Source of the DNA: a virus
Reading direction: 5' to 3' (one strand)
Length of the DNA stretch: 43,586 nucleotides
IMG/VR virus record: IMGVR_UViG_3300043613_000002
Location: 1 to 43,586 of that record
Numbering within the stretch: the first letter of the stretch is position 1; every line of letters starts with the position of its first letter. The position numbers and the translations under genes were made by a program. The notes under the pieces are model-generated. The model was not told the DNA's origin. It did no database searches and saw only the letters and a program-made list of their open reading frames with translations. Below are positions 886 to 32,229 of this stretch, piece by piece.

Positions 886-1182
886 ATGGCCAGACCAGCA
901 GGTTCCCCAAATAAAGACAAGCCATTCCGAGACGCGCTCAGGATGGAAGCTGGCTTGGCTGAAAGCGGTGATGAAACTCCTGCAAACAAGGGCTCGCTTC
1001 GCTGGATTGCCCGTCAATTGCTCAATAGGGCGGGCGAGGAAACCGCAGCCGCTCGTGAAGTTGGCGACCGTTTAGACGGCAAGCCGGCGCAGGCAATCAT
1101 TGGTGGTGATGAAGATGATCCGGCGATCAATGTTGCCGTTACCAAGATTGAGCTTGTAGCACTGGATGGTCCCACAGATTAA
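886..1182 (+). CDS. Candidate terminase small subunit
   Basis: 98-aa ORF directly upstream of terL, overlapping it by 17 nt. Assignment is by position and size only. Confidence 0.45.
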   Translation: MARPAGSPNKDKPFRDALRMEAGLAESGDETPANKGSLRWIARQLLNRAGEETAAAREVGDRLDGKPAQAIIGGDEDDPAINVAVTKIELVALDGPTD

Positions 1183-2470
1183 GTTGCCGCCAAAGCTGAT
1201 CCCGGTCTTTGTGGGTGAGGCGATGTACCGCGGCGCATATGGGGGTAGAGGCTCAGGCAAAACCAGATCATTCGCCACGATGGCGGCGGTCTTTGGAGTC
1301 CGGTTTGCAGAGGCCAACGAGCCTGGAGTAATCGTTTGCGGGCGGGAGTTTATGAATTCCCTTGACGAAAGCTCGATGGCAGAGGTGAAGGCTGCGATTG
1401 CCTCTGATCCTTGGTTGACTTCCAAATATGACGTTGGCGAAAAATATATCAGAACCAAAGATCGCCGGATTGAATTTGCTTTTATCGGTCTCCGGCACAA
1501 TCTTGACAGCATTAAATCCAAGGCTCGGATTCGCCTTCTTTGGGTGGATGAGGCTGAGCCCGTTTCTGAAACGGCATGGATGAAGGCTATTCCCACCGTC
1601 CGCGAAGACAATTCTGAAATATGGGTGACGTGGAACCCCGAGAGAAAGAAAAGCGCAACGCATAAGCGGTTCCGCGTAAGCCCGCCGGAGGGCGCAAAGA
1701 TAGTCGAGCTAAACTGGCAGGACAATCCGCGGTTTCCGAAGACCTTGGAGAAGACCAGGCTTGAGGATAAGGCCAAACGTTCGGATCAATATGAGCATGT
1801 TTGGGGTGGCGGGTTCGTGACAGTGGTAGCCGGCGCCTACTACGGAGGCTTCCTCACCGAAGCCAAGGAAAAGGGCCGGATTAGTCCGGTTGAGTTTGAT
1901 CCGCTAATGAGGATCAGGGTCTATTGCGATCTTGGCGGGACTGGAGCCAAGGCAGATGCCTTTGCGATGTGGCCAGCTCAGTTCATCGGTCAGCAAATCC
2001 GAACTCGGGATTATTACGAGGCCCAAGGTCAACCACTAGCCACGCATATTCAGTGGTTGCATTCGAAGGGTTATAAGCCCGAGAGAGCAGATATCTATCT
2101 GCCTCATGATGGCGAGACCAACGACAGGGTAATAGATGTTTCCTTTGAAAGTGCCTTTCGTGCAGCTGGGTATGAGGTCGTCGTGATCCCGAACCAAGGC
2201 AAAGGCGCGGCCAAGATGCGCGTCGAGGCGGGCCGGCGCGTATTCAATTTGATCTGGTTTGATGAGGAATCGACGGAGGATGGCCGTGATGCGCTCGGCT
2301 GGTATCACGAGAAGAAGTCCGATGATGACCGGGAGGCATTGCTTGGTCCTGAGCACGATTGGTCAAGCCATGGTTCGGATGCTTTTGGCCTGATGTGCGT
2401 GGCATATGAGGCCCCGGTTGAGCGCAAGGAATATGTGGCGCGCCGTGCCGGCTCATGGATGGGCGCATGA
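1166..2470 (+). CDS. terL: Terminase large subunit
   Basis: 434 aa. Walker A GGRGSGKT and Walker B LLWVDEAE are read directly. Lies immediately upstream of the portal gene. Confidence 0.93.
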   Translation: MVPQIKLPPKLIPVFVGEAMYRGAYGGRGSGKTRSFATMAAVFGVRFAEANEPGVIVCGREFMNSLDESSMAEVKAAIASDPWLTSKYDVGEKYIRTKDRRIEFAFIGLRHNLDSIKSKARIRLLWVDEAEPVSETAWMKAIPTVREDNSEIWVTWNPERKKSATHKRFRVSPPEGAKIVELNWQDNPRFPKTLEKTRLEDKAKRSDQYEHVWGGGFVTVVAGAYYGGFLTEAKEKGRISPVEFDPLMRIRVYCDLGGTGAKADAFAMWPAQFIGQQIRTRDYYEAQGQPLATHIQWLHSKGYKPERADIYLPHDGETNDRVIDVSFESAFRAAGYEVVVIPNQGKGAAKMRVEAGRRVFNLIWFDEESTEDGRDALGWYHEKKSDDDREALLGPEHDWSSHGSDAFGLMCVAYEAPVERKEYVARRAGSWMGA

Positions 2471-2622
2471 TACGGATTGGAAAAATCACGTTCAAGGGTC
2501 GGTATGTTCCGATGAACAAATCGATATACCCGACTGTCTATGAGAACGGATACGAGCGAGCGGCTATTTTCGAATTTGTATATGCCGGCGTAGACCGCGT
2601 CATCTACAGGCGCGTCGCCTGA
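2467..2622 (+). CDS. Small hypothetical protein (51 aa) between terL and portal
   Basis: ATGA overlap with the terL stop and TGATG overlap with the portal start. Too short for the ORF track. Confidence 0.4.
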   Translation: MIRIGKITFKGRYVPMNKSIYPTVYENGYERAAIFEFVYAGVDRVIYRRVA

Positions 2623-4892
2623 TGGCTTACGACTCCGACAAGCCCGACGACGGTGACGACAAGAAGGCCAACAAGAAAGCCAACAAGAAAGACTGGGAAG
2701 CCGTCCACAAGACCGCGATGGAGGAATACACCCGCGACTATGACAAGGAGCGGAGCAATATCGATGAGGCTTACGAGGACCTGAGGTTCCGAAGAGGAAC
2801 GCTTCGGGATCAATGGGACGATGAGGCCTTACAGGCTCGCAAAGGCCGTCCCTGCCACGTCGTCAATAAGCTGCCGCAGTTCATCCGTCAGGTCACGGGA
2901 GACATGCGCCGCAAGAAGCCGGGCATCAAGGTTGTTCCGGTGGACAGTGGAGCTGATGTTGAGACCGCTGATGTCCGCGGCGGCATGATCCGATACGTTG
3001 AAAACCGTTCCAAGGCGAAGCACGTTTACACCACGGGCGCGGACAGCCAGGTCACCTGCGGCATTGGCCATTGGCAGGTTATGACCGAATACGCTCATTC
3101 CGGGACGTTCAATCAGGAAATCCGGATTGGTGGTATTGATGACGGTGTGGCGGTGGTCTGGGATGCCGATGCCTCGGGCCCAACCAAGGAAGACGCGGAC
3201 CATTGTTTCGTGCCGACCGATATGTCCCTGGCCAAGTTCAAGGCGCGCTGGCCCGAGGCAAAGACTGATGGATTTGATACTCCCGGTGGGGAGACCTTCG
3301 TCAACTGGTCGTCCGACGAGCATATCCGGGTAGCGGCCTATTGGAAGAAGAAGCCGATCAAGCGAACACTTGCCTTGATGCAGGACGGCACGATTGACGA
3401 CCTGACGGACGTGCTGAAGGATTCCGACAAGGGCGCTATTGCTTCCGGCATGGAATACCTGAAAAGCACAGGTGCGCGGATCGAGGAGCGGAATAGCTAC
3501 ACGGTCTGTCGTTATCTGATGTCGATGGGCGAGATCCTCGAGGAGGCCGACTGGCCGGGCATGCATATCCCGGTGATCCCGGTAGTTGGCGAAGAAGTCC
3601 GGGTTGGCCGCGACGTTTACCGGCATGGCGTGGTCAGGTACGCCCGCGATCTCCAGCGGCTGGAAAACTACTACGCCTCGGCTGAGACCGAGGTTATTGC
3701 GTTGCAGCCGAAAGCACCATGGCTTGGCACCAAGAAGAATTTCCAAGCTCGGTTGGATCTTTGGGAAACCGCCAACACCGAAAACCATCCTTATATGGTT
3801 TATACGCCAGATGCAGCAAACGGTAATAAGGAGCCGTCACGCATCCAGCCTCCGGTGGCATCTCAAGCCATCATCGAGGGCAAGCAGCGCAATTCGGAGG
3901 ACATGAAGGCCGTCATCGGCATTTACGATGCGAGCCTTGGGGCGAAGTCGAATGAGACTTCTGGAATTGCCATCCAGCGGCGGGATGCGCAAGCAGATAC
4001 AGGTACTTTTGTCTACCACGACAATTTCGCGCTTGCGATCGAGCGCACTGCAGAAATCGTCAATGAGCTATTTCCGAAGATCTACGACACGCAGCGGACG
4101 ATGCGGATCATTGGTGATGACGGCAAACCGAATCTTGTCGAGATCAACAAGCCTCAAGTAATGAACGGGGTCGATCGCATCCAGCACGATATGACTGCGG
4201 GTTCATACGATGTGGTAATGGAGGAGGGCCCGGCCTACGCGACCAAGCGTGAGCAGGCGCAAGATGGAATTATGGCGTTCATCCAGGCCTTCCCGCCGGC
4301 CGCGGCTGTATTGGGGGACATTTTCGCCAAGATCATGGACTTCCCGCACACTGAAGAGATCGGCGAGCGCTTGGAAGAAATCCTTCCACCCCAGGTCAAG
4401 GCAAAGCTGCAGCAGGAGCGGGCTGAGGCTGAGCAGGCAAGTGGAAAGCCGCCCTCACCTGAGATGCAACAGCAGGCCCAAGCGCAGCAGGCAGCCCAGC
4501 AAGAGGCGCAGCAAGCCAAGCAGATGCAGATAGCACAGATGCAGGCCACGGTCGAGGAAGCCACTGCCAAGGCTGAGACAGCCAAGCAGAATGCTCGCAA
4601 GGCCAAGGCGGACGCGGATAAGGCTGAGAGCGATGCTCAGACCGCCAAGGCCAATTTCGCTAACAGTACCATGGATCATCTGCGGACGATCGAAAGCCAC
4701 GACCATGAGATGGCGCGCGGTCAGATTGGCCACGCTCAGTCCACGCAGCACGCCCAAGACAAGCACGAGATCGATCTGACCCTGAAGGGCTTTGGCGAGG
4801 CCAGAGCGGCCGAGCAGCACGAGCAGGGCGCCGAGAAGCACAAAGAGACCATCAAGCAGATGAAGCAGCCAGAACCTGTTATGGCTGAATAG
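2622..4892 (+). CDS. Portal protein (P22 gp1-like)
   Basis: 756 aa, directly after terL. The long Q/A/E/K-rich helical C-terminus resembles the P22-type portal barrel. Confidence 0.88.
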   Translation: MAYDSDKPDDGDDKKANKKANKKDWEAVHKTAMEEYTRDYDKERSNIDEAYEDLRFRRGTLRDQWDDEALQARKGRPCHVVNKLPQFIRQVTGDMRRKKPGIKVVPVDSGADVETADVRGGMIRYVENRSKAKHVYTTGADSQVTCGIGHWQVMTEYAHSGTFNQEIRIGGIDDGVAVVWDADASGPTKEDADHCFVPTDMSLAKFKARWPEAKTDGFDTPGGETFVNWSSDEHIRVAAYWKKKPIKRTLALMQDGTIDDLTDVLKDSDKGAIASGMEYLKSTGARIEERNSYTVCRYLMSMGEILEEADWPGMHIPVIPVVGEEVRVGRDVYRHGVVRYARDLQRLENYYASAETEVIALQPKAPWLGTKKNFQARLDLWETANTENHPYMVYTPDAANGNKEPSRIQPPVASQAIIEGKQRNSEDMKAVIGIYDASLGAKSNETSGIAIQRRDAQADTGTFVYHDNFALAIERTAEIVNELFPKIYDTQRTMRIIGDDGKPNLVEINKPQVMNGVDRIQHDMTAGSYDVVMEEGPAYATKREQAQDGIMAFIQAFPPAAAVLGDIFAKIMDFPHTEEIGERLEEILPPQVKAKLQQERAEAEQASGKPPSPEMQQQAQAQQAAQQEAQQAKQMQIAQMQATVEEATAKAETAKQNARKAKADADKAESDAQTAKANFANSTMDHLRTIESHDHEMARGQIGHAQSTQHAQDKHEIDLTLKGFGEARAAEQHEQGAEKHKETIKQMKQPEPVMAE

Positions 4893-5363: not shown

Positions 5364-6200
5364 ATGGCAGACGAAGAGATCAAGCCGGCGGAAACGCTGG
5401 AGATCAAGGATGAAGGCAGGAATCTCGACGAGGCTTCGGCGGAAGCCAAGGTTGAGGAAAAAGTTGAGCCTAAAGAGGGTGAGACTGAAGTTGCTGGCGA
5501 GGAAGCTGGCGACGATGGCAAGCCCAAGAAACTAAGCGGCGCGGCGCGGAATAAAATCCGTGAAACGCGGCTGATACAGGAACTCGCGCAACGCGAGCGT
5601 GAGATTGAAGAACTCCGACGTTCAGCGCCGGCGAAGGCCAGCGAGACGGAGGAGAAAAAGCCGGTAGAGGCCGACTTCAACGGGGATTTCTTTGCGTTTC
5701 AGCAAGCCGCTACGGCCTTCGAGGCTGCTAAGGCGGTTCGTGATGAAATCCGCAAGGATCGTGAAGCCCGTCAACAGTCGGACAATCAGGCCGAACAGAC
5801 CAAAATCGCAAGAGAGCGCACGGTAGCGCATCTGGAGCGGGTCGAGGACGCACGCGAGGTAATTGCGGACTTCGATGTGGTCATGAAGGCGATGGACGGC
5901 GTGAAGGTCCGCAACGACGTGATTGACGAGATCATGTCGTCGGACAAGAGCGCCGAGATTTCATATTACCTCGCCAAGAATCCCCAAAAACTCGCGGAAC
6001 TGGACCGCATGAGCACCCGAGAGCTGGCCCGCGAAATGGGACGGTTGGAGGTGACCATCAAGCTCCCGACCGCGAAGAAACAAACCTCAGCCCCGCCGCC
6101 GCTCGATCCGCTCAAAGGAGGGGCGAGCGGCTCATTCAATCCGGAAACCGCTTCGATGGACGATTATGTCGCGAAGCGCAAAGCCGGATGGAAGGGCTGA
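5364..6200 (+). CDS. Scaffolding protein
   Basis: 278 aa, highly charged and coiled-coil-like. Lies between portal and coat, as P22 gene 8 does. Confidence 0.72.
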   Translation: MADEEIKPAETLEIKDEGRNLDEASAEAKVEEKVEPKEGETEVAGEEAGDDGKPKKLSGAARNKIRETRLIQELAQREREIEELRRSAPAKASETEEKKPVEADFNGDFFAFQQAATAFEAAKAVRDEIRKDREARQQSDNQAEQTKIARERTVAHLERVEDAREVIADFDVVMKAMDGVKVRNDVIDEIMSSDKSAEISYYLAKNPQKLAELDRMSTRELAREMGRLEVTIKLPTAKKQTSAPPPLDPLKGGASGSFNPETASMDDYVAKRKAGWKG

Positions 6201-6220
6201 CCCTCTTCATCTGATTGCCC

Positions 6221-6259
6221 GCAGTGATGCGCGCGGTCCCAGGGCACGCAGTGATGCGC
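6221..6259 (+). repeat. Two perfect copies of GCAGTGATGCGC (6221..6232 and 6248..6259) in the scaffold-coat spacer
   Basis: Read directly. Start-to-start spacing is 27 nt. Confidence 0.8.
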
Positions 6260-6281
6260 CCCGCCAGAAGGAACTACTTCA

Positions 6282-7517
6282 ATGACGCAACGCGTCTTAA
6301 CCGCGGACATCATCGCTAAGGAAGCGATCATGATCCTCGAGAACAACTGCGTGATGGGCAATCTCGTCTATCGCGGCTACGAGGAAGAATTTTCAAATCA
6401 GGTCAACGGCTACGAGAAGGGTGAAACCATATCGATCCGTCGTCCGACCGACTTCACGGTCCGCTCCGGCGCGGTCGCCGCGGTGCAGGAAGTCATGGAA
6501 GGCAAGACCTCGATCACCGTCGATACCCAGGAAGGCGTAGACTTCAAGTTCACTTCTTCCGATCTGACCCTGCGCATCGGGGATTTGTCCCAGCGTGTGA
6601 TCAAGCCGGCGATGGTGCAGTTGGCAAACTCGATCGATATGAAGCTCGCTGCCCTTTACAAGGATGTCTGGAACTGGGTTGGTACGCCCGGCCTGACCGT
6701 CGACAGCTTCGCTGACTTTGCCAAGGCTCCGACCCGTCTCGACCTCGGAGCTGTGCCGGCTGACGACCGAAACGCGGTGCTGTCCCCGACAGACGAATAC
6801 GGCATGCTTGGTTCGCAGACTGCATTGTATATGCAGGAAGTGGCCAAGGATGCCTACCGTAACTCGAACTTGGGTCGGATTGCCAGGATCGATACGTTCT
6901 CAACCCAGAACGTGCAGACCTTCACGGCCGGCACCCGCGACAACACCACGCCGACCATCAAAGGCACGCAGTCCACCACATGGGCTTCGACCAAAGACAC
7001 CGGCACGATGTCTTTGAACACCGTTGGCTGGGATGCCTCTGCCACACTCAAGCAAGGCGACGTGTTCATCATCGATCTGGTGTTCGCGGTTAATCCCGTG
7101 ACCAAGGCAGTACTGCCGTATAATCAGCAGTTCGTTGTCAAGGCCGATGCGACCGCCAACGGCACCACGACCTCGACCACGACGTTGACGATCTCGCCGC
7201 CGATCATCACCTCCGGTGCGTTCCAGAACGTCAGCGCGGCGGCCCTGGACGCGGCCACGATCACGATCCTCGGCACGGCCTCGACCGGCTACGCCCAGAA
7301 CATGGTGTTCCACAAGAATGCCTTTGCGCTGGTCATGGTTCCGTTGGTCAAGCCTCCTGGTGCGGTGGAGGTCTCGCGGCGGTCCTACAAGGGCTTCAAT
7401 GTTCGTGTCATTCCTTACTATGACGGCACCAACGACCAGAGCAACTGGCGTTTGGACGTTTTGTACGGGGTGAAAACTCTGGACCCCCGTCTCGCCACCC
7501 GCCTGTCGGGCAGCTAA
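6282..7517 (+). CDS. Major capsid (coat) protein, P22 gp5-like
   Basis: 411 aa. The N-terminus MTQRVLTADIIAKEAIMILENN...RGYEEEF resembles P22-type coat proteins. Lies after the scaffold gene. Confidence 0.88.
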   Translation: MTQRVLTADIIAKEAIMILENNCVMGNLVYRGYEEEFSNQVNGYEKGETISIRRPTDFTVRSGAVAAVQEVMEGKTSITVDTQEGVDFKFTSSDLTLRIGDLSQRVIKPAMVQLANSIDMKLAALYKDVWNWVGTPGLTVDSFADFAKAPTRLDLGAVPADDRNAVLSPTDEYGMLGSQTALYMQEVAKDAYRNSNLGRIARIDTFSTQNVQTFTAGTRDNTTPTIKGTQSTTWASTKDTGTMSLNTVGWDASATLKQGDVFIIDLVFAVNPVTKAVLPYNQQFVVKADATANGTTTSTTTLTISPPIITSGAFQNVSAAALDAATITILGTASTGYAQNMVFHKNAFALVMVPLVKPPGAVEVSRRSYKGFNVRVIPYYDGTNDQSNWRLDVLYGVKTLDPRLATRLSGS

Positions 7518-7536: not shown

Positions 7537-7788
7537 ATGACTGTTGGCGTTTATCCCAAGCAGCTTTCTGACGCTGGTCCGTTGGGAACATTAATGGGTC
7601 AGTCCGCAACCGACCTGATCGGCTTCTACGGCGTGGCAACTCCGGTTGCGCAGCGTGCGTCGTCAGTTCAGGCAACCTCGTTGATCTCGGCTTACACCTC
7701 CACCACGGCTTCGGCCCTGATCGGGGCTTTGCTGGTTGAGATCGCGAATACTCTGACCGGACTTTCCCTTTGGAAAGGGGCGGCCTGA
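7537..7788 (+). CDS. Small Ser/Thr-rich protein after coat (decoration or modification-substrate candidate)
   Basis: 83 aa with a strong RBS (GAAGGAG). Contains the segment SSVQATSLISAYTSTTASA. Confidence 0.6.
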   Translation: MTVGVYPKQLSDAGPLGTLMGQSATDLIGFYGVATPVAQRASSVQATSLISAYTSTTASALIGALLVEIANTLTGLSLWKGAA

Positions 7789-7790
7789 TC

Positions 7791-8468
7791 GTGACAACGG
7801 GCAAGCGGACAAAAGTCGTATTCGTTTGCCCGACTGTCACCCGGCCATACGATTGTTTTCTAAAAGCGATGGAGGCTTCTGTTCCATTGTTGGATGGGTT
7901 CTATCATCAAATCATCTTCGAAGTGTCAAACCCCTATATCAGCGCCGCCCGTGCCAACTTGTTGCGGAAGGCGCTGGATGCTGATGCTGACATCATCGTC
8001 TTTATTGACCACGACCTGAGTTGGAAGCCAGCCGACCTTTTGAAATTAATCGAAACCCCCGGCGATGTCGTGGCGGGGCTCTATCGGTTCAAAAAGAATG
8101 AGGAAGAATACATGGGCGCCGTGGTGACGGACGCCAATAACGTTCCGCAAGGCAGGGCATCCGATGGCGCTCTCTCAGGTTTTCGTGTCCCGGCAGGCTT
8201 CCTGAAGATCACCAAGGAGGCCGTCAACAAGTTCATGGAAGCGTATCCAGAGCTTTGCTACGGGCCTTATTATCAGCCCTCGGTTGATCTGTTCAATCAT
8301 GGGGCGCATGAACGGCTTTGGTACGGCGAGGATTATGCGTTCTCGCGAAGATGGCTTGCAACAGGGGAGCGGATCTGGATCGTGCCTGATCTGGACATTG
8401 ATCACCACTCACAGGACCAGGTTTACAAGGGCAATTTCCACAAATTCCTGACAAGGCTGAATAGCTGA
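7791..8468 (+). CDS. Glycosyltransferase (GT-A-like), paralogue of 8989..9720
   Basis: DxD motif in IVFIDHDLSW, plus GEDYAFSRRW. A GTG start at 7791 is preferred; the track gives TTG at 7770. Confidence 0.72.
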   Translation: MTTGKRTKVVFVCPTVTRPYDCFLKAMEASVPLLDGFYHQIIFEVSNPYISAARANLLRKALDADADIIVFIDHDLSWKPADLLKLIETPGDVVAGLYRFKKNEEEYMGAVVTDANNVPQGRASDGALSGFRVPAGFLKITKEAVNKFMEAYPELCYGPYYQPSVDLFNHGAHERLWYGEDYAFSRRWLATGERIWIVPDLDIDHHSQDQVYKGNFHKFLTRLNS

Positions 8469-8992
8469 TGGAGCTTCTGGTAGGAGCTGGCGCCAAGCGT
8501 GAGAAGCATCTTCGCCGTCCGGACCGCCCCGAGTGGGACAATCTCGTCACGCTTGATATGAACCCGGATCACAAGCCGGATGTAGTCTGGGATCTGACGC
8601 AGCGCCCGCTACCCTTCGAGGACAATACCTTCGATGAGATCCACGCCTATGAAGTGCTCGAGCATCTCGGACAGCAGGGCGATTGGCGAGCCTACTTCGA
8701 AGAATGGTCGGAATGGTGGCGCATCCTAAAACCCGGCGGGCAGTTGTTTGCAACCTCGCCCATGTGGAACTCTGTTTGGGCCTTTGGCGATCCCGGCCAT
8801 ACCCGCGTTATGAGCATCGGATCTCTGGTCTACCTGAACCAGCCCGAATACACCAAGCAGATCGGCCAAACCGCGATGACGGATTATCGGTTCGTCTACA
8901 AGGCCGATTTTGACATGGCGCTTTCCGAAACCCACGATGAATGCTTCGCCTATAGCATGATCGCCGTGAAGCCGTCGCGGATTTCAATATGA
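8468..8992 (+). CDS. Class I SAM-dependent methyltransferase
   Basis: Motifs LLVGAGAK, LDMNP, FDEIHAYEVLEHL and RILKPGGQLF. TGATG overlap with the upstream GT. Confidence 0.78.
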   Translation: MELLVGAGAKREKHLRRPDRPEWDNLVTLDMNPDHKPDVVWDLTQRPLPFEDNTFDEIHAYEVLEHLGQQGDWRAYFEEWSEWWRILKPGGQLFATSPMWNSVWAFGDPGHTRVMSIGSLVYLNQPEYTKQIGQTAMTDYRFVYKADFDMALSETHDECFAYSMIAVKPSRISI

Positions 8993-9720
8993 AAAAGCCG
9001 AGCGTGATGGTGTGCCTTCCTGCTTATGGTCAAACAAACTGCACCGTGACCACGGAATCGCTGTTCAAGCTGGCGCAGTTCTTCACGCTCAATTCTATCA
9101 GACATCAGCTCTCATGGTACTCAGCAGCTGACATCGTCGAGGTCCGTAACCTGTTTTTGACCTCGTGGTATGATTGCCACCCACAATATTCGCACATGCT
9201 GTTCATCGACGCGGATATGGGCTTTGAGCCGGAATTGATCCGCGACATGATTGATTTCGACAAGCCATTGACCGGGACGTTCTACGCCCGGCGGCAAATG
9301 CCGGCCTCTGTGGTCGGCGCAGCACTTCATCCCGATCATTCCTTTCCGGACATCAAGAGCGGGTTCCTGCCGGCGGCTTATGTCGGTGGAGGCGTCATGC
9401 TGATCAAGCGCTCGATGATGAAGGAGATGCTGGAGAAGAAACCGGAGCTGATCGATGCGCTTCCCAGCGTCCTTGCACAAGCTACCAGCCTTCCCCTGAC
9501 GCGGCTGATCCGTGCCTTCGACACCATTATTGAGGACAACCGCAGGCTTTCCGAGGACATTTCGTTCTGCTCCCGCTGGATCGAGTGTGGAGGAGAGATC
9601 TGGGCCAATGTGATGCACAAGATCGATCACGTCGGGCCGTTCAACTTCCATCTCCGCTACGGCGGGATCATGGAAAAGACATGGAACGAGGATCAGGCCA
9701 ATGCCCAAAACGCGGCTTGA
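8989..9720 (+). CDS. Glycosyltransferase (GT-A-like), paralogue of 7791..8468
   Basis: DxD motif in MLFIDADMGF, plus SEDISFCSRW. ATGA overlap with the methyltransferase. Confidence 0.72.
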   Translation: MKKPSVMVCLPAYGQTNCTVTTESLFKLAQFFTLNSIRHQLSWYSAADIVEVRNLFLTSWYDCHPQYSHMLFIDADMGFEPELIRDMIDFDKPLTGTFYARRQMPASVVGAALHPDHSFPDIKSGFLPAAYVGGGVMLIKRSMMKEMLEKKPELIDALPSVLAQATSLPLTRLIRAFDTIIEDNRRLSEDISFCSRWIECGGEIWANVMHKIDHVGPFNFHLRYGGIMEKTWNEDQANAQNAA

Positions 9721-10117
9721 TCTCGTCAATCAGTGCCTGATCAATCTTGGTGTCTATACCTACGGCCAATCACTATCGCCTGAAGACCTTCTAAAGATGG
9801 ACGGCTTTATCGATCCGTCTATTGCCTTGCTGGAGGGCAAGGAGATTTATTTCGTAGCGGATGCGGGTACGGCAGCCGGTACCGACGGATCTCCAACATC
9901 TGGCGAGATCGATGACGCGGCCTTTTTACCGTTGGCGGACTGGATTGCGAATCGGGCTTGTTCCGGTTTTAATCTGGCGGCGGATGCCAAGATGCAAGCC
10001 CTGGCCTCCTTGGCTGAAGCTGATCTGATCACACTGTCAGCTCCGAAATCGACCCTTCGGACGTTGCGGGTCGATCCGGCCTTGAGGCCACGTCGGCTTG
10101 GTTGGTATCGTGGTTAA
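9701..10117 (+). CDS. Head-tail adaptor candidate (P22 gp4 position)
   Basis: 138 aa, immediately upstream of the gp10-like gene. Assigned by synteny only. Confidence 0.45.
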   Translation: MPKTRLDLVNQCLINLGVYTYGQSLSPEDLLKMDGFIDPSIALLEGKEIYFVADAGTAAGTDGSPTSGEIDDAAFLPLADWIANRACSGFNLAADAKMQALASLAEADLITLSAPKSTLRTLRVDPALRPRRLGWYRG

Positions 10118-11531
10118 AAAGACGATCCCGTTTCCGGTCCAAACGGCACCGGGAGCAAAGCCACAAGAGGCCGGTGGTCGGATTATCAATGGCTATGTCG
10201 AGGAACTGGGACCGCAGGCGCCGGGCAAGACGGTCATTCGCCGGGCTCCGGGGCTGGTCAACTTCGGGACATCGGCCCGGACCGGATTTCGCGGCTCGAT
10301 CGTTGTCAATGCCGTGTTGTATGCGGCCTATAATGGCAAGCTGGAGAAATGGACCAGCGCGGGTGGTGCATCAGTTAATGTAGGCAATCTGAACGGCACC
10401 AAGCGGGGCTTCTTTGCTGCCAATAACAACACCACGCCGGATAAGGTATTCGTCGATCCGGACGGTAATATCGCTACCTTCACGCCGAGCGCGGTTACAA
10501 ATTCATGGCCGGATGCGGATCTTCCTGCGGTCAACTCGGTTGATTTTCTCGATGGCTATCTGGTGTTCACGACTGGAGATGGCAGGGCGTTCGCGACAGA
10601 TCTGAACTCGACCAGCGTCAACGCACTTAGTTTTGGCAAGGCAGAGGCCAAGCCGGACGGGCTGGTCCGCGTGGTCTCATGGGGCGGTCGGCTCTTGTTC
10701 TTCGGCAATCAGACGACGGAAGTCTGGACCGACGCGGGGACGACGCCGTTCCCGTTCGCTCGCAACACGGTCATTCCGCGTGGATTGGCCGGACCCTATT
10801 GCGTATCGGGATATGAGGATGGATTCTCCCGCGGACCGATCTTCATCGGGGATGATAGTTGCGTCTACGCTCTTCAGGGATACACACCCACAAAGGTTTC
10901 GACGCCTGACATTGATGGATTGATCGAGGCCGTCAGCGATAAGACAACTCTTGAGATGACCTGTTACATCTCAAAAGGTCATGCGTTCTGCGACATCTCC
11001 TGCCCGGCGTGGACCTGGACACTGGACGTGACGACGAGCCAATGGGCGGAAGGTGCAAGCTTTCTTGGAACTCGATCCCGACGCGCCGGAGCCATAAATG
11101 CATACAGCAAGTGGCTGACCGGCGACACGGCAGGTGGAAATTTCCAGCAGATAACGTCAACTGCGAATGATGAGGTCGGAAGCCCGTTAAGACTTCGCAT
11201 CGAAAGCGGGCCCGTGATGAATTTTCCCAGCGGAACGGTGGTCGGAAGGGCTGATTTCTACTTCACGACGGGCGTTGGTATCGCTGCGGGACACGATCCG
11301 GATCAGACTGACCCCGACGTTGATATTTCCTGGAGCGATGACGGAATCACATGGAGCAACCCGATCAATCGAAAGCTCGGAAGGCAATCGGAGCCAAGGC
11401 AGTTGATCTCGCTAGTGGCCTGTACAGGGCGTACAGGCTGGCAGGGGCGCCGCTGGCGGCTTGATGTTTCTTCTGGTGTGTATGCAGGGTTCATGTTCGG
11501 AACGATGTCGGACGATCCCAGGGCCGTCTGA
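10098..11531 (+). CDS. P22 gp10-like tail hub / packaged-DNA stabilisation protein
   Basis: 477 aa (P22 gp10 is 472 aa). The segment EAKPDGLVRVVSWGGRLLFFGNQTTEVWTDAG resembles the P22 gp10 segment as I recall it from memory. The start codon is uncertain (TTG 10098 or GTG 10110). Confidence 0.68.
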   Translation: MVGIVVKKTIPFPVQTAPGAKPQEAGGRIINGYVEELGPQAPGKTVIRRAPGLVNFGTSARTGFRGSIVVNAVLYAAYNGKLEKWTSAGGASVNVGNLNGTKRGFFAANNNTTPDKVFVDPDGNIATFTPSAVTNSWPDADLPAVNSVDFLDGYLVFTTGDGRAFATDLNSTSVNALSFGKAEAKPDGLVRVVSWGGRLLFFGNQTTEVWTDAGTTPFPFARNTVIPRGLAGPYCVSGYEDGFSRGPIFIGDDSCVYALQGYTPTKVSTPDIDGLIEAVSDKTTLEMTCYISKGHAFCDISCPAWTWTLDVTTSQWAEGASFLGTRSRRAGAINAYSKWLTGDTAGGNFQQITSTANDEVGSPLRLRIESGPVMNFPSGTVVGRADFYFTTGVGIAAGHDPDQTDPDVDISWSDDGITWSNPINRKLGRQSEPRQLISLVACTGRTGWQGRRWRLDVSSGVYAGFMFGTMSDDPRAV

Positions 11532-11998
11532 TGGCAAGGATAAAGACCCCGCTGCAGGACGTTACCCCGATCGAGAATATACCGGGGCGATGGACACCTG
11601 ACTGGTACGATTTCTTCAGGCAGTTGGATGGGCTTGATCCACTATCAAGCATTGTGTTTCCCCACGATGTTACGAAGTCCGATATTACGCGCACGCTTAA
11701 TGCCCAGAGCGGGACGACTTACACCTTTGCGCTGGCAGATGCTGGCAGCCTGTGTGAGTTCACCAACGGCTCGGCCGTTACGGTGACGATACCGACCAAT
11801 GCCAGCGTGGCGTTTCCGGTAGGGACACAGATCGATGTGACGCAAGGCGGGGCTGGAAAGGTGACTTTTGCAGGCGCGGGTGGTGTCACTTTGAAATCGG
11901 TCGGCAGCAACAAATCTCTCTCGGCTCAGGAAGCCGGCGGAACACTCGTTCAGATGTCGGCCAATGTCTGGAGGCTGGTTGGCAGCCTGATCCCATGA
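11531..11998 (+). CDS. Tail-associated hypothetical protein
   Basis: 155 aa. TGATG coupling to the upstream gene. Position matches P22 gp26/gp14. Confidence 0.55.
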   Translation: MARIKTPLQDVTPIENIPGRWTPDWYDFFRQLDGLDPLSSIVFPHDVTKSDITRTLNAQSGTTYTFALADAGSLCEFTNGSAVTVTIPTNASVAFPVGTQIDVTQGGAGKVTFAGAGGVTLKSVGSNKSLSAQEAGGTLVQMSANVWRLVGSLIP

Positions 11999-12690
11999 GC
12001 AGGTTTGGACTGGGGTTTCTGGGATCATTTGGAGGCAATGACGCTTTCGTAAAGAGTCTGCTGCATCTGGACGGGACCAATGGATCAACCACGATCACGG
12101 ATGAGGCGGCTGGGAAATCTCCCGTCCTTTCGTGGACCTGCGTTGGCGATGCGCTGTCAACGGCAGATCAGAAGTTTGGAACAGCTAGTCTTTTGAATGC
12201 GGCTATTCAGTACATTACTACGCCGGACAACGCGGCGTTCAATGCTCTTGGTACGACGCCTTTCGTCTTCGACTGCTGGATCAACACGGCGAACTCCGGT
12301 TCGCAAATGTTCATGGCGGGGATTGGTCTCCGCAACGCGACGTTCTCGTTTTATCTGGTTCGCAATGCCGCGAACACGATCTCGTTCGTTACGCCTTCTG
12401 GCACGGTCACTACGGCCGGAACGGTCAGTTCTGCAGGTTGGCATCACGTCGCAGCGATCGCAGACGGTACAAATATCTACATCGCGCTGGATGGCGTGGT
12501 TTCGTCTGGAGTTGGGTACACGTCGCTGCCGTCTACTAGCGGCCCCTTCGATATCGGAACAGTTCACTTTACGGCGGGCACTATTTCCTTGAGTTTCCTC
12601 GGCAACATCGATGAGGCGCGACTGTCGATCGGCACTACGCGCGGGTGGACTTCGAACTTTACGCCGTTCTCGATGGCTTACGGACTATAA
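11995..12690 (+). CDS. LamG / concanavalin-like domain protein (tail or receptor-binding accessory)
   Basis: 231 aa. The motifs LLHLDGTNGSTTITD and WHHVAAIADGTNIYIALDGV are typical of Laminin_G_3-like phage proteins. Ends in tandem stops TAA TAG. Confidence 0.65.
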   Translation: MSRFGLGFLGSFGGNDAFVKSLLHLDGTNGSTTITDEAAGKSPVLSWTCVGDALSTADQKFGTASLLNAAIQYITTPDNAAFNALGTTPFVFDCWINTANSGSQMFMAGIGLRNATFSFYLVRNAANTISFVTPSGTVTTAGTVSSAGWHHVAAIADGTNIYIALDGVVSSGVGYTSLPSTSGPFDIGTVHFTAGTISLSFLGNIDEARLSIGTTRGWTSNFTPFSMAYGL

Positions 12691-17327: not shown

Positions 17328-17672
17328 GTGCAAATGGGCTCACTCGCGGAAGTTGCCCGCGGCGAAGACTGGATCGCGGTCAGTCCTTTGATTGATGATG
17401 ACAACGAGGAGGTCATCCTGACCGATGTGGAAATCGTCATGTCGATCTGCCGGCAGGGATGTCCTGAGACAGCACTTCTGACGGCCTCCACAACCAACGG
17501 CAAGATCACGCTGCCTACTACAACGACGCTTCAATGGTGGTTCACGAAGGACGACACCATTCAGCTTTGCGCCGGCACCTACGACGTATTCTTTTACGTT
17601 ATCATTGACGACATTCGGTCGCAGATCATTTCCGGAACGGTTCCGATTGTCGAAGGCGGGCCTGCGTCTTGA
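17328..17672 (+). CDS. Hypothetical tail-module protein
   Basis: 114 aa. GTG start 8 nt after AGGAG. Overlaps the next gene by 4 nt. Confidence 0.5.
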
Positions 17673-19294
17673 GCCAGTCCTATCGATTGAGGATTTCAAG
17701 GCCGGCGCTGAAGCTCAGAGTTGCATCGCGCATTCCGGCACGGCTGGAGGCGCTGAGCCCGATCCTTCTGGACCGCACGGGCGGGATTTATACATTCAGC
17801 TTTGACGAATCTGCTCTTGAGGCAACGCTTGGTTTCACTTACCAGCCGTTCGATCTCACGCTTACCGCGCTGGCTGCGCTCAATTCGACCGCAGGTCTTT
17901 TGGTCGAGACTGCGGCAGACACCTTCACCAAGCGAACACTTACCGGGACCGCCGCTGAAATCACCGTCACCAATGGCGATGGTGTGTCGGGCAATCCCAC
18001 ACTTTCACTGCCTGCGGCTATCACGGCTACCGGCAAGACCATCACGGGAGGGACATTCGACACCATAACCGCCAAGGGTACATGGGCGGTTAGCGGAACG
18101 TGGACCATTCCAGCCGTTACATTGGGCGGTACGGTCTCAGGCGGCGGCAACCAGATCAATAATGTCATCATCGGCACGACAACTCCGCTTGCCGGTACGT
18201 TTACTACGCTCGGAAGCGGTGCGCATACGATCACGTCCGCATCAGCCAACGCACTGACCGTTGGCCTCAACGGTGCAACTAACCCAGCGTTTATTGTAGA
18301 CAGTTCGACCGCTCTGCAAACTTCGGGTCTTAAAGTTACCGGACTTGGTACCGGTAACGGCACGAATCTCAGTATTATCGATACCGCCACCGATTCTCCT
18401 ATGGCGCTAAATGCCAAGGGAGCAGGCGGTATTTTAATAGCCAACGTCTCTACTGGTGGCATCACCTTATCGAGAGCGGTGACGCTAAGCTCCACCATCA
18501 ACAAATTGACGCTGACAGCTCCCGCGACCGCTTCAACGCTGACCATTCTTGACGGTAAGACCGCGACGTTCAATAACAGCATCACGTTCGCCGGCACCGA
18601 TGCCACGACGATGACGTTTCCGACGACGACCGCTACGATTGCGCGGACGGATGCGGCAAATACCTTCACGGGTCATCAGACAATTGAAGGCGTCACTTCG
18701 ACGGGCGCAACGGGAACCGGAAATTTTGTCTTCTCTATAAGTCCGACATTCACCGGAACTCCGATTGCGCCCACGGCGGCGGTTGATACCAATACGACTC
18801 AGATAGCAACAACGGCGATGGTGCTGGCACAGGCGGCATCCGCGACGCCTCTAGCGAATAACGTAACGGCTGCGGTCGGAACATCGACACGATACGCTCG
18901 CGGGGATCATGTCCACCCAATTCCTAACCTGGCAGCGATTAATAACAGTGTCGGCTCTCCGGTAAACCTGAGCAATGTCGCCTATGTTGATGGTCCCAGT
19001 GTGGCTCAAGGCAGCACAGGGACGTGGTTTGCCTCCGGCAATGTGTCTCTGACGGCAACGAGCGGCGATCAAATAACCGCCAAACTCTGGGATGGCACAA
19101 CTTTAATCGATAGTGGCGTGGTGCAGATCGCCAGCGGCGGCAGCGGCACCATTTCTTTGTCTGGTTATCTGGCAGCCCCAGCCGGGAATCTGCGGATAAG
19201 TGCTCAGAACAATACAGCCCTTCGCGGGACGATCGCCACCAATAACGGTGTCGATCAGAAGGGCTCCACCATCAGCGCATTCAGGATTGTTTAA
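17669..19294 (+). CDS. Tail fibre protein
   Basis: 541 aa, Thr/Gly/Ala-rich and repetitive. The N-terminal [51 protein letters not shown] is typical of alphaproteobacterial phage fibres as I recall them. Confidence 0.72.
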
Positions 19295-27260: not shown

Positions 27261-28331
27261 TTAAGCTTTTTTAGCCTCGTCCCGCACCTTCCCATCTGGT
27301 GAGGGAATAGAAGTTCCGGGTTTGGACAGTTTGCCCATGTGCTCCGCGGCGAGCCGGCGCCGGTCAGCAGCCTTGGTGTAGAGGGCCGCCATCTGTCCCC
27401 CCTGCCATCCGAAGATCGCCTCCAGGGTCGCCACCGTGGCGCCGTTGTTCGCTGCGCGGGTCGCTGCGGCCTTCCTGATCCCGTGTCCCGACTTTGCTAT
27501 GCCGGCGGTCCGGCAGGCCTTCTTGAACATATTGCCAAGCGATTCCTTGCGGATGGGCTGTCCCTTCTTGCTGGCGATGATCGATAATTCCCCCAGCGGT
27601 CCGGCCTCCAGGATCTCTGCTAACTCCGGCAACACGGGGATCGTAACCCGCGTGTCGTTCTTCTCGGTGTCGATCGTGATGACGCCGTGTCGGATATGCT
27701 GCTTGCCGAGTTTGGCCGCATCGCCGCGGCGCAGTCCGGTGAAGCAATAGACGCCAAACATAACACGTTCGCGCGTTCCTAGCTTCCAATAAGCTTCGTA
27801 CTGCTCAAGTTCTTCTTCGGTCCATTCTGGAAAGCCTCTTGTCTTCGGCTTTCTCACTTTCTTTCCCGTGGTCGGATCTGAGCTGATGTGCTGGGCACCA
27901 ACCGCCCATTTGAACATGCCGCGCATAGTGTCGAGGAAATGCCGGCCCGCGAACGCCTTGCGGCGCTCAATGCCTTGGTCGATCGCCTTGTTGGTGATCT
28001 TCGATAGTGGCTGATTGCCGCCGGTCTTTAGAACCCCGCGCATGATGTTTTCGCGCTGCTTACGGGTAGCCATTGAAAGCTCGGTCCATGCGGTCGTCTG
28101 TCGATAGAGCATCCACAGCCATTCCAACGAGCCCTTGAGGGCCTTCCCTGCGGGCTGCGGTGACTTGCCGTTCAGCGCAGCTTGATAGGCTTCCTCAAAT
28201 TCCGTCGTGCCGTAGACAGCCTTTATGCGAATCCTCGGGCCTTTGCCGATGCGGACATACCAGACCGTTTTACCGTGGCGGTTGGTTTCCCGGTGAAGGT
28301 GGGGTGGGCGAGGGCGGGGCATGCCTATCAA
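27261..28331 (-). CDS. int: Tyrosine integrase
   Basis: Catalytic motifs GLRRGD, HGIRKAAATR and LYTK read directly. The likely ATG start is 28322 (MPRPRPP); the track start is TTG at 28331. Confidence 0.92.
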   Translation of the reverse strand: MIGMPRPRPPHLHRETNRHGKTVWYVRIGKGPRIRIKAVYGTTEFEEAYQAALNGKSPQPAGKALKGSLEWLWMLYRQTTAWTELSMATRKQRENIMRGVLKTGGNQPLSKITNKAIDQGIERRKAFAGRHFLDTMRGMFKWAVGAQHISSDPTTGKKVRKPKTRGFPEWTEEELEQYEAYWKLGTRERVMFGVYCFTGLRRGDAAKLGKQHIRHGVITIDTEKNDTRVTIPVLPELAEILEAGPLGELSIIASKKGQPIRKESLGNMFKKACRTAGIAKSGHGIRKAAATRAANNGATVATLEAIFGWQGGQMAALYTKAADRRRLAAEHMGKLSKPGTSIPSPDGKVRDEAKKA

Positions 28332-31100: not shown

Positions 31101-31166
31101 TCAAGCGAGAGCGACGAACGCAAACAGGAAGGTAAGGAAGAGGGCGATGGTCAGGGCTGTGATCAT
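31101..31166 (-). CDS. Possible 21-aa hydrophobic micro-ORF
   Basis: MITALTIALFLTFLFAFVALA. GGAGGAACGACA precedes the ATG. ATGA overlap with the HNH gene stop. Confidence 0.2.
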   Translation of the reverse strand: MITALTIALFLTFLFAFVALA

Positions 31167-31936
31167 TGTCGTTCCTCCGGCTGTTGCCTAATGGCGGTCA
31201 TGAAGACTTCTTTTTCTTTCTCCGAGAGATCGAAGAAGCCATGAATGACGGCGGAAACTCTTTTTAAGCTGGCAGCTTCATCGGTATGCGAAAAGCGCTC
31301 AGCGCCAATCCCACCAAAGGTTGGCAAAAGAGGCGTCAAAAGCGCCCGCTCCTCTGTCCAGCCCCTATCCAGGCGCAGCAGGAACGCGTCATACTTCAGG
31401 CCGACCATCTCTGCAGCTTCTGAAGCGGGCATGGGGCGACCGAAGAAAGTAATAACTCTACGGCCTCGACGGTTTCGCATTTGCTGCGTTTTGGTCGCCC
31501 AGCGGCAGTTTCCGGGCTCGTAATTTCCGTCATTGTCGATCCTGTCCAGCGAATGCTTGGGAGACGGCTTGCGGCCCATATTCTCTAAGAACGCGGGATA
31601 GCTGTTGAGCCATCGTTCGCAGACTGAGATTCCGCGACCTCCGTAATAGGAAAAGCTATCGTCCTTCGGGTCCGTGCATCGGCGGATAAAGCCGCGCCAG
31701 CAAGATAGTTCTGGAGCGACATTCCCGCGTTCGGCGTCGCCATGCTTGAAGCTTCGGAGGCCCAATTGGCTTTTCTTAATGCATCCGCAGCTCTTTGATT
31801 GCCGAATACTGCCCCCACGCATAATTTTTTCGTTTCCGCAGTCGCATCTAATATTCCAAAGAGAGACCGGTCCAGCGTAGCTGACGACATTTATCATGCC
31901 AATCTTGCGACCAGCCATATCAATTAGCTGCCTCAT
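31163..31936 (-). CDS. HNH-type endonuclease-like protein
   Basis: HSLDRIDNDGNYEPGNCRWATKTQQMRN is an HNH_3-like motif. The internal ATG at 31936 is ATGA-coupled to the upstream stop. Confidence 0.68.
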   Translation of the reverse strand: MRQLIDMAGRKIGMINVVSYAGPVSLWNIRCDCGNEKIMRGGSIRQSKSCGCIKKSQLGLRSFKHGDAERGNVAPELSCWRGFIRRCTDPKDDSFSYYGGRGISVCERWLNSYPAFLENMGRKPSPKHSLDRIDNDGNYEPGNCRWATKTQQMRNRRGRRVITFFGRPMPASEAAEMVGLKYDAFLLRLDRGWTEERALLTPLLPTFGGIGAERFSHTDEAASLKRVSAVIHGFFDLSEKEKEVFMTAIRQQPEERQ

Positions 31937-32229
31937 TTCGGAGCCCTCAACGTCATGGCAAGAATGAACGGATCTATTCCATGACTGGACCAAAAAGAAA
32001 TTTCATTCATGCTGTGTTGTTCACGATGGTGATTATTACAGAGGGGCAAACACCAAATATCTGAAGGACGCTCAGAGCCTCCGGTTTCGCGTTTTCCATG
32101 CTCCAAACTCGCCGTTCGTATATGCGCCGCCTCAGTGTCGATGCCTCCACAGATGCAGCATGGCAAAGACCTAATAAATCTGAGATGGGCCTCATTCCGG
32201 ACGCGCGGTTCTTTCTGGCGTAGCGTCAT
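31933..32229 (-). CDS. DUF968 / NinG-like Cys-His protein
   Basis: LPCCICGG..EAAHIRT..PSDIWCLPLCNNHHREQH. The ATG at 32229 is ATGA-coupled. Confidence 0.62.
   Translation of the reverse strand: MTLRQKEPRVRNEAHLRFIRSLPCCICGGIDTEAAHIRTASLEHGKRETGGSERPSDIWCLPLCNNHHREQHSMNEISFWSSHGIDPFILAMTLRAPK

Follow-up and report, generated by a model that had tools for sequence, protein, structure and literature searches.

The subject of this paper is a complete 43,586-bp contig from the Joint Genome Institute (JGI), IMG/VR virus record IMGVR_UViG_3300043613_000002, which we refer to as the window. A P22-type morphogenetic operon, read from the + strand, takes up its left arm, and between the coat gene and the head-to-tail adaptor gene of that operon lie four genes: one for a small Ser/Thr-rich protein of 83 amino acids (aa), one for a glycosyltransferase (GT1), one for a class I S-adenosylmethionine (SAM) methyltransferase (MT), and one for a second glycosyltransferase (GT2). 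Judging from comparisons of sequence, the best reading of this island is that its enzymes O-glycosylate proteins of the phage virion, and we predict this as the probable function. Virion proteins are indicated as the target by the fixed position of the genes between coat and adaptor, by the lack of independent expression signals, by the predicted solubility of the enzymes, by the kinship of the small protein with a module of phage fibres, and by the exchange of enzyme families beside such small proteins. Above all, they are indicated by the co-variation of one enzyme gene, GT2, with a sequence feature of the coat.

The coat feature in question is a Thr-rich loop, whose core reads NGTTTSTTTL in the window. 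Our comparison set comprised about 250 related phage loci overall, and re-sampling by coat similarity gave 75 loci with coat identities of 35-91%. Each loop was scored by counting Thr in the ten-residue stretch that aligns with residues 293-302 of the window coat, with a count of 5 or more taken as positive, and a protein was called a GT2 orthologue if it was at least 44% identical. Scored in this way, the Thr loop is present at 15 of the 16 loci that carry a GT2 orthologue, as against 3 of the 48 others (Fisher's exact test, 8e-11, uncorrected for shared ancestry). The single GT2 locus below the threshold, L218, reads NATTQSTTL.

Ancestry alone fails to explain this pattern, because loop and enzyme are also absent together at loci nested inside the GT2-bearing coat clade. 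The island is missing from L216, where SG--GGAATL stands in the place of the loop; with the loop masked, the L216 coat is 84.6% identical to the coats of L209 and L211-215. Similarly, L219 and L220, whose coats are identical to each other and 74-76% identical to GT2-bearing coats, have no GT2, and their loop reads TAT---SSGD. A further locus, L285, is concordant in the other direction, since it has the tract, MT and GT2; there, a generic small protein is followed by an MptE-like gene in the place of GT1. The nested co-absences and the contrast between 15/16 and 3/48 lend comparative support to the proposal, made in the original prediction for this DNA, that the Thr-rich tract of the coat is a plausible O-glycosylation substrate.

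The manner of sampling matters for this result. In a first set of loci, selected by the small protein or by GT1, the TTTSTTT tract was found only in the window's closest relatives. It looked unconserved there because those loci are mostly without GT2, and sampling by coat reversed the outcome. As for the location of the loop, the window coat is only 23% identical to P22 gp5 (E 0.006), and in this weak alignment the loop falls at gp5 residues ~305-315, presumably within the surface-exposed I-domain; on that alignment, the window's loop would be exposed on the surface. GT2 orthologues occur directly after the coat, with no small protein, at L209 and L211-215, and they are likewise without a small protein at L218 and L223. 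These orthologues need an acceptor other than the small protein.

The small protein has an association of its own, with GT1. A profile of the small protein retrieved 80 IMG/VR loci, in which the coat gene is followed by one or two copies of the small gene and then by a GT1-type glycosyltransferase, sometimes with an MT between them. The only ones without a glycosyltransferase are L015, L025 and L031, whose contigs all stop no more than about 0.7 kb from the small gene. Conversely, a GT1 profile matched >567 IMG/VR stretches, and among the 79 best loci, which were analysed, the small protein is present at 76 of the 76 with usable upstream sequence; at the other 3, the glycosyltransferase lies at the contig end. 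The same order was found for 22 of 24 matches in species-representative genomes, the exceptions being L184 and L191 (a distant homologue). In L184, GT1 stands without a coat or small protein upstream, in non-phage DNA of a 284-kb contig of a metagenome-assembled genome (MAG), and it looks like a prophage remnant rather than a true exception. The coupling also holds by subtype: in the coat-selected set, small proteins of the WKG type occur with GT1 orthologues in 3 of 3 cases, whereas those of other types do so in 0 of 29. One isolate, Rhizobium ecuadorense CNPSO 671, has a prophage that carries the pair of small protein and GT1, and the pair is found in MAGs of Phenylobacterium, Hyphomicrobiales, Xanthobacteraceae, Rhodocyclaceae, Ideonella, Methylobacter and Lysobacterales.

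Because of this strict coupling to GT1, the 83-aa protein is the other likely acceptor. The earlier suggestion that it is a glycosylation substrate is thus strengthened by comparison, and the protein stands as a candidate in that role. Both partners are well conserved: at a coat identity of ~38%, GT1 is ~59% identical and the small protein 45-52% identical, whichever protein was used to select the loci. Spearman correlations between the pairwise identities of cassette and structural proteins range from 0.03 to 0.36; because the identities are saturated, these values do not tell vertical from horizontal inheritance.

The two associations appear to be separable. Among 78 non-redundant complete architectures, the commonest are small-GT1 (31), small-MT-GT1 (19), small-small-MT-GT1 (14) and small-small-GT1 (6), and only 4 include a second glycosyltransferase of the GT2 type. 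The MT of the window, which we call type B, is always directly upstream of a GT2 orthologue (L005, L006, L208, L221, L222 and L285). In sequence terms, then, the single glycosyltransferase-methyltransferase-glycosyltransferase cassette that was originally described gives way to two modules, small protein with GT1 and MT with GT2. The full combination occurs in just those 4 architectures, and the window is a rare, elaborate version of the cassette.

What kind of protein is the putative acceptor of GT1? Ser or Thr makes up 19 of its 83 residues (23%), and among 151 unique small proteins a Ser or Thr is conserved at position 48 in 91%, at 54 in 96% and at 72 in 93%, with T35 kept in 84%. The family is found in none of Pfam, PHROG and PDB, and a profile search of PDB gave no significant match. 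When the profile was compared with 1.8 billion cluster representatives, however, 757 relatives emerged. These comprise stand-alone proteins of ~80 aa and long proteins with 3-5 tandem copies of a unit whose consensus is '...TTGTKIGTxxxQKLGFFGATPVxQ...LxxLGLI'. Some of the tandem-unit proteins bear BppL_N or tail-spike features; in collagen-like fibres of high-GC phages, the small-protein module forms the C-terminal end; and the module is also present in the long fibre-like proteins P0295, P0305, P0352 and P0359 and at loci L194, L197 and L202. By sequence, therefore, the small protein appears to be a free-standing copy of a fibre-protein module of ~70-80 aa that is absent from Pfam and PHROG. 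An AlphaFold2 (AF2) model of the monomer has a pLDDT of 63, and only the C-terminal helix at 55-75 is confident.

The literature that we searched contains no mention of the small protein's motif strings, and searches for near and distant DNA relatives turned up no cultured phage with the small protein. The sole relative found is the metagenomic sequence MW202573 from Manatee Spring, in which a coat, a small protein (43% identical), an MT and an 'A197' glycosyltransferase occupy the same slot. One of the IMG/VR loci, L011 (IMGVR_UViG_3300019886_000009), has a small protein 59% identical to that of the window and is a different phage: the 200-mers at the ends of the 10-kb part examined do not occur exactly in the window.

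We turn to the enzymes themselves. GT1 and GT2 are, on sequence comparison, clear paralogues (hhalign probability 100%, E 4e-42, 18% identity), and both belong to phrog_1574, a family of 'unknown function'. GT1 matches the Pfam family Glycos_transf_2 (PF00535) at 18.9 bits, below the cut-off of 23.3, and GT2 does not match it; the two are GT-A enzymes by fold that lie outside this curated family. For GT2 we carried out the structure prediction and Foldseek search that had been recommended for assigning the glycosyltransferase family, and the outcome is a GT-A fold. The AF2 model, built from a 53-sequence alignment, has a pLDDT of 96.3 and a pTM of 0.92. It has 86 matches in PDB at E<=0.001, and the best 50 are all glycosyltransferases or proteins with glycosyltransferase domains. 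The first is A197 of the archaeal virus STIV (2e-8), followed by the glycosyltransferase domains of human LH3 and COLGALT1 (4e-8 to 2e-7) and then by mimivirus R699, POMGnT1, PBCV-1 A64R and GalNAc-T2. The fold also matches enzymes that build polysaccharides, namely B3GNT2, EXTL2 and chondroitin synthase. The nearest BFVD models come from uncultured phages and are GT-A proteins that have not been characterised (TM-score 0.75-0.83); one of them is fused to an FkbM methyltransferase.

The residues expected of such enzymes are conserved. Across 53 sequences of the GT2 family, D74, D76, E189, D190 and H214 are invariant, and in 11 diverse GT1 sequences the invariant residues include D73 and D75 (within DHD or DYD), E180-D181 and H205. 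A DxD motif on a GT-A fold is thus seen for GT2 in the model, and GT1 is tied to GT2 by the hhalign match. Profile searches of PDB by sequence with GT1 and GT2 found nothing significant; among the non-significant matches of the GT1 profile, COLGALT1 accounts for four of the best five (E 0.17-0.25). No transmembrane segment was detected in GT1, MT or GT2 (maximum KD19 values of 0.90, 0.54 and 1.08), and all three are predicted to be soluble.

Existing labels for GT1 differ: JGI calls it a 'glycosyltransferase involved in cell wall biosynthesis', and the GenBank entry for its orthologue in MW202573 is 'A197 protein-transferase'. GT1 is common in metagenomes, with 2,957 protein clusters at E<=1e-10, and 251 homologues of GT2 were found. 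Distant homologues of GT2 (44-47%) lie near terminase and head genes of unrelated phage types in L283 (an 88.9-kb contig) and L284, close to methyltransferases of the FkbM/Methyltransf_21 and TylF families. The association of glycosyltransferase with methyltransferase thus recurs outside the P22-like phages.

The methyltransferase matches PF08241 above the cut-off (21.2 bits), its motif I reads LLVGAGA, and G6, G8 and D30 are invariant in its family, as in a class I SAM methyltransferase. A profile of the family matches 3l8d (4e-6), 3bus (6e-5), which we take to be the sugar O-methyltransferase RebM, and, weakly, a D-glucose O-methyltransferase (0.014). Its best PDB matches are uncharacterised or small-molecule methyltransferases with scores too weak to assign a substrate, and no DNA methylase is among the PDB matches of the profile. 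In PHROG there is a weak match to phrog_954, 'DNA methyltransferase' (E 0.0019).

The coordinates of the island and of its surroundings are given in Table 1. All four genes are open reading frames (ORFs) on the + strand between the coat gene and the gp4- and gp10-like genes, as had been described, and their identities (a Ser/Thr-rich small protein, two glycosyltransferases and a class I methyltransferase, set in a late structural operon) were likewise borne out.

Table 1. Coordinates of the coat-to-adaptor island and of other features of the window.
Feature	Position	Strand	Basis or remark
TerL	1166-2470	+	P22-type morphogenetic operon
Portal	2622-4892	+	phrog_156 at 1e-139
Scaffold	5364-6200	+	phrog_8865 at 7e-37
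P22-type major coat protein, 411 aa	6282-7517	+	PF11651 P22_CoatProtein 1.1e-51; phrog_283 3e-92
Thr-rich coat loop ANGTTTSTTTLTISPP, residues 292-307	7155-7202	+	candidate O-glycosylation site
Small Ser/Thr-rich 'WKG-type' post-coat protein, 83 aa	7537-7788	+	ORF; no Pfam/PHROG/PDB family
GT1, DHD motif (FIDHDLSW)	7791-8468, alternative start TTG 7770	+	phrog_1574 4e-13
Class I SAM methyltransferase MT ('type B')	8468-8992	+	PF08241 Methyltransf_11, 30.8 bits
GT2, DAD motif (FIDADMGF)	8989-9720	+	phrog_1574 7e-21
gp4-position head-to-tail adaptor, 138 aa; downstream island border	9701-10117	+	phrog_29314 1.7e-19, plus position
gp10-like head-closure/DNA-stabilisation protein	10098-11531	+	PF11134 Phage_stabilise 2.8e-6; phrog_578 6.7e-89
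Tail and fibre genes	downstream of gp10-like gene	+	same operon
Integrase	27261-28331	-	about 18 kb from cassette

The manner in which these genes are joined bears on how they would be expressed. Inside the cassette we found no promoter-like or terminator-like site above chance. Strong Shine-Dalgarno sequences precede the coat gene (GAAGGA) and the small gene (GAAGGAG), and the starts of the three genes for enzymes are either weak or overlapping. This pattern would fit abundant structural proteins and scarce enzymes. The junctions described in the original prediction hold in part: GT1 and MT do overlap at TGATG, and MT and GT2 at ATGA, but the small gene and GT1 are not joined in that way. The stop codon TGA of the small gene lies at 7786-7788 and the GTG start of GT1 at 7791, which leaves a 2-nt gap and agrees with the N-termini of homologues; the alternative TTG start called by JGI gives a protein of 232 aa and a 19-nt overlap with the small gene. 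At the far border, GT2 overlaps the adaptor gene by 20 nt. The equivalent adaptor gene in L285 matches PF24175 SU10_adaptor.

Well over a hundred independent loci from metagenomes share this gene order, and chance is therefore not an issue. The order of coat, portal, scaffold and gp10 genes agrees with that of P22, so that the window carries a P22-like morphogenetic module; given the low identity of its coat, the phage appears from its sequence to be a distant P22 relative. It is temperate, since it encodes an integrase. The GC content of the GT1 gene is 52.4%, compared with 57.9-58.5% in the adjoining small and coat genes. GT1 is at the same time the most conserved protein of the region, and its low GC content could reflect horizontal exchange of the module.

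It had been stated that P22 has no genes at this position, which is incorrect: P22 (L207) carries orf69, of 69 aa, at 6135-6344, in the slot between coat gene 5 and adaptor gene 4. The slot thus holds a small gene even in the type phage. We considered orf69 as a homologue of the 83-aa protein and rejected it, as the two have no similarity.

Across phages, the contents of this slot are highly variable. In some close relatives there is nothing in it, and coat, adaptor and gp10 genes adjoin. In others it holds a generic small protein alone, which ends in ...LGLI and is without the WKG end; a small protein with a third type of GT-A enzyme; a small protein with an MptE-like (DUF115/Maf-like) protein of 245-263 aa; a GT2 orthologue alone; MT with GT2 (L221 and L222); or combinations of these. 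Two of the MptE-like proteins (L219:5976-6713 and L210:6079-6819) match PF01973 at 2e-6 and 5e-5, which is below the curated cut-off, and a third (L285:3508-4299) was matched by motif only. The MptE/PF01973 family includes the Maf flagellin glycosyltransferases, and the MptE-like protein may likewise glycosylate proteins, as another kind of enzyme occupying this slot. As far as sequence can tell, this looks like the replacement of one enzyme by another beside the same kind of acceptor. A further family of 279-301 aa, with the signature 'S(T/R)RGRP ... (D)DDD', stands beside GT2-type genes at L218:6502-7341, L227:4265-5125 and L286:1706-2611. The two members scanned, from L218 and L227, have no Pfam match; the family resembles GT-A enzymes and may be a fourth enzyme type of the island.

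These observations can be assembled into a model, in which the late operon would contain a virion-glycosylation island with two pairs of acceptor and enzyme. In the first pair, the 83-aa protein would be made at the level of structural proteins, would probably oligomerise through its C-terminal helix and sit on the capsid, and would be O-glycosylated in the cytoplasm by GT1 from a host nucleoside-diphosphate sugar. In the second pair, GT2 would O-glycosylate the Thr-rich loop of the coat's surface insertion domain, and MT would O-methylate the sugar that GT2 transfers. The enzymes, kept scarce by translational coupling, would act before or during assembly and would not be packaged. The outcome would be a sugar-coated capsid and, because the island is modular, a glycan that differs among related phages. 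Here we infer the acceptors, the O-linkage and the methylation of the sugar, as well as the placing of the small protein on the capsid and any gain for the phage (shielding, stability or adhesion). We extend the model only tentatively to a large uncultured group of P22-like phages of Proteobacteria. In these, a hypervariable island might provide each phage with O-glycans of its own, some of them methylated, for which the coat loop and a purpose-built ~80-aa fibre-module protein would be the dedicated acceptors, giving the virion a variable coat much like the O-antigen, and might evolve by swapping pairs of enzyme and acceptor (GT1, GT2, other GT-A or Maf-like enzymes).

Several observations weigh against virion glycosylation as we have described it. 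With respect to the coat, L257 and L261/L262 have a Thr loop alongside other glycosyltransferases, and L286 has a GT2 homologue (2611-3471, 48% identity) alongside a coat (44-1300) whose loop reads STGGGGGTMS. The correlation between GT2 and the tract comes largely from one clade, in a neighbour-joining tree without support values. The island as a whole is dispensable, as the close relatives without it attest. With respect to the small protein, its model is poor; one helix is borderline hydrophobic (KD19 1.65), with weak matches to holin families; it is more conserved than the coat, which is unexpected for a partner of a fast-diverging capsid lattice; and generic small proteins are also S/T-rich in phages with no detected enzyme. 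With respect to the enzymes, pelagiphage HTVC027P, MW202753 and other phages have distant relatives of phrog_1574 in the midst of their replication genes. Finally, the fold cannot separate GT-A enzymes that act on proteins from those that act on glycans: because glycan-building enzymes also match, and because TM-scores to solved structures are ~0.5, the GT2 model indicates the chemistry and not the acceptor.

Part of this material suits a variant in which the virion does carry glycosylated proteins, with the 83-aa protein in a role other than that of substrate. It would serve as an adaptor or chaperone that brings GT1 to the coat, fibres or tail proteins, or it would be an unrelated decoration protein. 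Strict adjacency is as natural for a partner as for a substrate, the unusual conservation of both the small protein and GT1 is what one would expect of interacting partners, and S/T-rich generic small proteins also exist without a detected enzyme. Fibre ORFs, with up to 18% Thr, would be other putative acceptors; the fibres had been described as Thr-rich, and the 541-aa ORF at 17669-19294 does reach that figure. We nevertheless judge this variant unlikely. Ser or Thr is kept at positions 48, 54 and 72 in 91-96% of the 151 sequences, the WKG subtype is specific to GT1 while different enzyme families swap beside small proteins, and a ribosome-binding site of structural strength would be unusual for the chaperone of a low-abundance enzyme.

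It is also improbable, in our view, that the enzymes modify a glycan of the host cell envelope. On this account, precursors of lipopolysaccharide (LPS), exopolysaccharide (EPS) or capsule would be modified late in infection or from the prophage, so as to block superinfection or the sticking of progeny to debris, with the small protein as a membrane-associated helper. The phage is temperate, the JGI label for GT1 refers to the cell wall, the fold matches polysaccharide-building enzymes, and the helix and holin-family matches of the small protein would suit a membrane role. Yet none of the three enzymes has a transmembrane segment, and they have neither a GtrA- or GtrC-like partner nor a promoter of their own. 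At well over a hundred loci the genes keep strictly to their place between coat and adaptor, a long way from the integrase. Moreover, modification of the envelope leaves unexplained both the co-variation of the Thr loop with GT2 and the fibre-module nature of the small protein.

We consider it very unlikely that the target is a host protein, such as flagellin, pilin or a defence protein, and that the position in the operon is incidental, as for a moron. A dispensable and variable island does resemble a moron slot, the GC content of GT1 is 5 points below that of its neighbours, and MptE/Maf-like enzymes, a family known for flagellin glycosylation, occur in relatives. But morons usually bring a promoter and a terminator, and the cassette has no sign of either above chance; the position stays fixed even where coat identity is down to about 36%; and co-variation with the coat sequence points to a phage acceptor. 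Scarcely credible, lastly, is hypermodification of the phage DNA (glycosylated modified bases) against restriction: phage glycosyltransferases are classically DNA-modifying, glycosyltransferase and methyltransferase pairs occur in hypermodification systems, the family has distant members among replication genes, and MT weakly matches a DNA-methyltransferase family, but among the 40 ORFs of the window that were scanned, many of them unannotated, no Pfam or PHROG match pointed to a base-hydroxymethylation pathway (no hydroxymethylase, TET or thymidylate-synthase-like gene), the MT profile matches small-molecule and sugar methyltransferases rather than DNA methylases, the genes lie in the late structural operon away from replication genes, and neither the coat-loop co-variation nor the small-protein coupling would be explained.

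Glycosylation of the virion by phage-encoded enzymes has precedents in mycobacteriophages. Corndog gp35-38 comprise an O-methyltransferase and glycosyltransferases encoded within or beside the head-gene cluster, and the enzymes are absent from twice-purified virions (PMC4351075). Mycobacteriophage glycosyltransferases, such as those of Corndog and of Che8 (gp108-110), have been proposed or shown to glycosylate capsid and tail-tube subunits, according to PMC4351075 and to PMC12619734 and PMC11256854, which relay Freeman et al. 2023. The window resembles Corndog in that its glycosyltransferases and methyltransferase are also embedded in the virion structural gene cluster, and the absence of the Corndog enzymes from virions fits the low-expression signals of the window enzymes.

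There are important differences, however. Those phages are siphoviruses of Actinobacteria, whereas the window belongs to a group of P22-type podoviruses of Proteobacteria; its island lies between coat and adaptor genes and includes a small protein tied to one glycosyltransferase; and its proposed coat acceptor is an internal loop rather than the C-terminus. Relative to the mycobacteriophage systems, two features are new: the island is modular and variable, and it includes a small protein dedicated to an acceptor-like role. The parallel with mycobacteriophages does not extend to homology of the enzymes, either: comparison with Che8 gp108-110 and Corndog gp35-38 gave hhalign probabilities of 0.2-1.9% and a best hmmsearch score of 10.6 bits. 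Sequence comparison thus suggests that GT-A enzymes of another kind were recruited here, in an event separate from the one in mycobacteriophages. To our knowledge, virion glycosylation of tailed phages has been shown only for mycobacteriophages, where it alters antibody recognition. In the literature that we searched, phage virion glycosylation is reported only for actinobacteriophages and for no phage of a Gram-negative host, and the claim that it is without an earlier report in P22-like phages of such hosts stands within that scope.

Other viruses offer looser parallels. PBCV-1 A064R has two rhamnosyltransferase domains and a sugar methyltransferase domain and builds the glycan of the major capsid protein; like the window enzymes, it combines a virus-encoded cytoplasmic GT-A enzyme with a methyltransferase, and its A64R domain 1 (2p72) is a fold match to GT2 (E 9e-5). 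The match is weak (TMq 0.34-0.35), however, and A064R is one fused protein of a eukaryotic giant virus, while the window has separate small genes in an operon. The glycans of PBCV-1 are, in addition, N-linked. STIV A197 (PDB 2c0n), the best solved match to GT2 (TM-score 0.51/0.63), is a minimal viral GT-A enzyme with DxD, but it is 13% identical and the match in fold yields no function; we know of no acceptor for A197. LH3 and COLGALT1 (GT25), which with their mimivirus homologues come directly after A197 among the fold matches, act on proteins. They differ from GT2 in that the resemblance is limited (TM-score about 0.5, identity 11-13%), the window has no lysyl hydroxylase, and the proposed acceptors are Ser/Thr.

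The comparison with the gtr systems, by contrast, is one of opposites. Temperate P22-like phages do carry glycosyltransferase genes in these systems, and GtrA, GtrB and GtrC are membrane proteins, encoded next to int/att and expressed from the lysogen. The window enzymes have no transmembrane segments, and their genes belong to the late operon, with about 18 kb between them and the integrase. The distinction that had been drawn between this island and gtr-type O-antigen modifiers is therefore upheld.

If the proposed function is correct, capsid glycosylation would be widespread in environmental and prophage-borne podoviruses of Gram-negative bacteria, given about 3,000 GT1 protein clusters and prophages in Rhizobium, Phenylobacterium, Rhodocyclaceae, Methylobacter and other genomes. 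The analysis yields two predictions of enzyme and acceptor: the 83-aa protein would be the acceptor of GT1, and the coat loop NGTTTSTTTL that of MT+GT2. It also defines a previously unannotated protein module of ~80 aa that the small protein shares with phage fibres. Small soluble GT-A enzymes with short acceptor motifs could also serve as tools for the glyco-engineering of phage capsids.

Some other features of the window deserve mention. In the tail region, a 155-aa protein (11531-11998) has a C-terminal domain with which 'minor tail' and fibre proteins (phrog_8780 and others) also end, and the next gene (11995-12690) encodes a protein with a Laminin_G_3 / ConA-like lectin fold. The window contains no tRNA genes. 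In the early region there is a homologue of the cell-cycle regulator GcrA at 38582-39088 (+; PF07750 1.9e-20). GcrA is an alphaproteobacterial regulator, and its homologue in the window suggests that the phage infects an alphaproteobacterium, whose cell cycle it may interfere with. The early region also encodes an HNH endonuclease at 31163-31993 (-; phrog_374 9e-61) and a protein with a T5orf172/MUG113 (GIY-YIG-like) domain at 36814-37341 (+).

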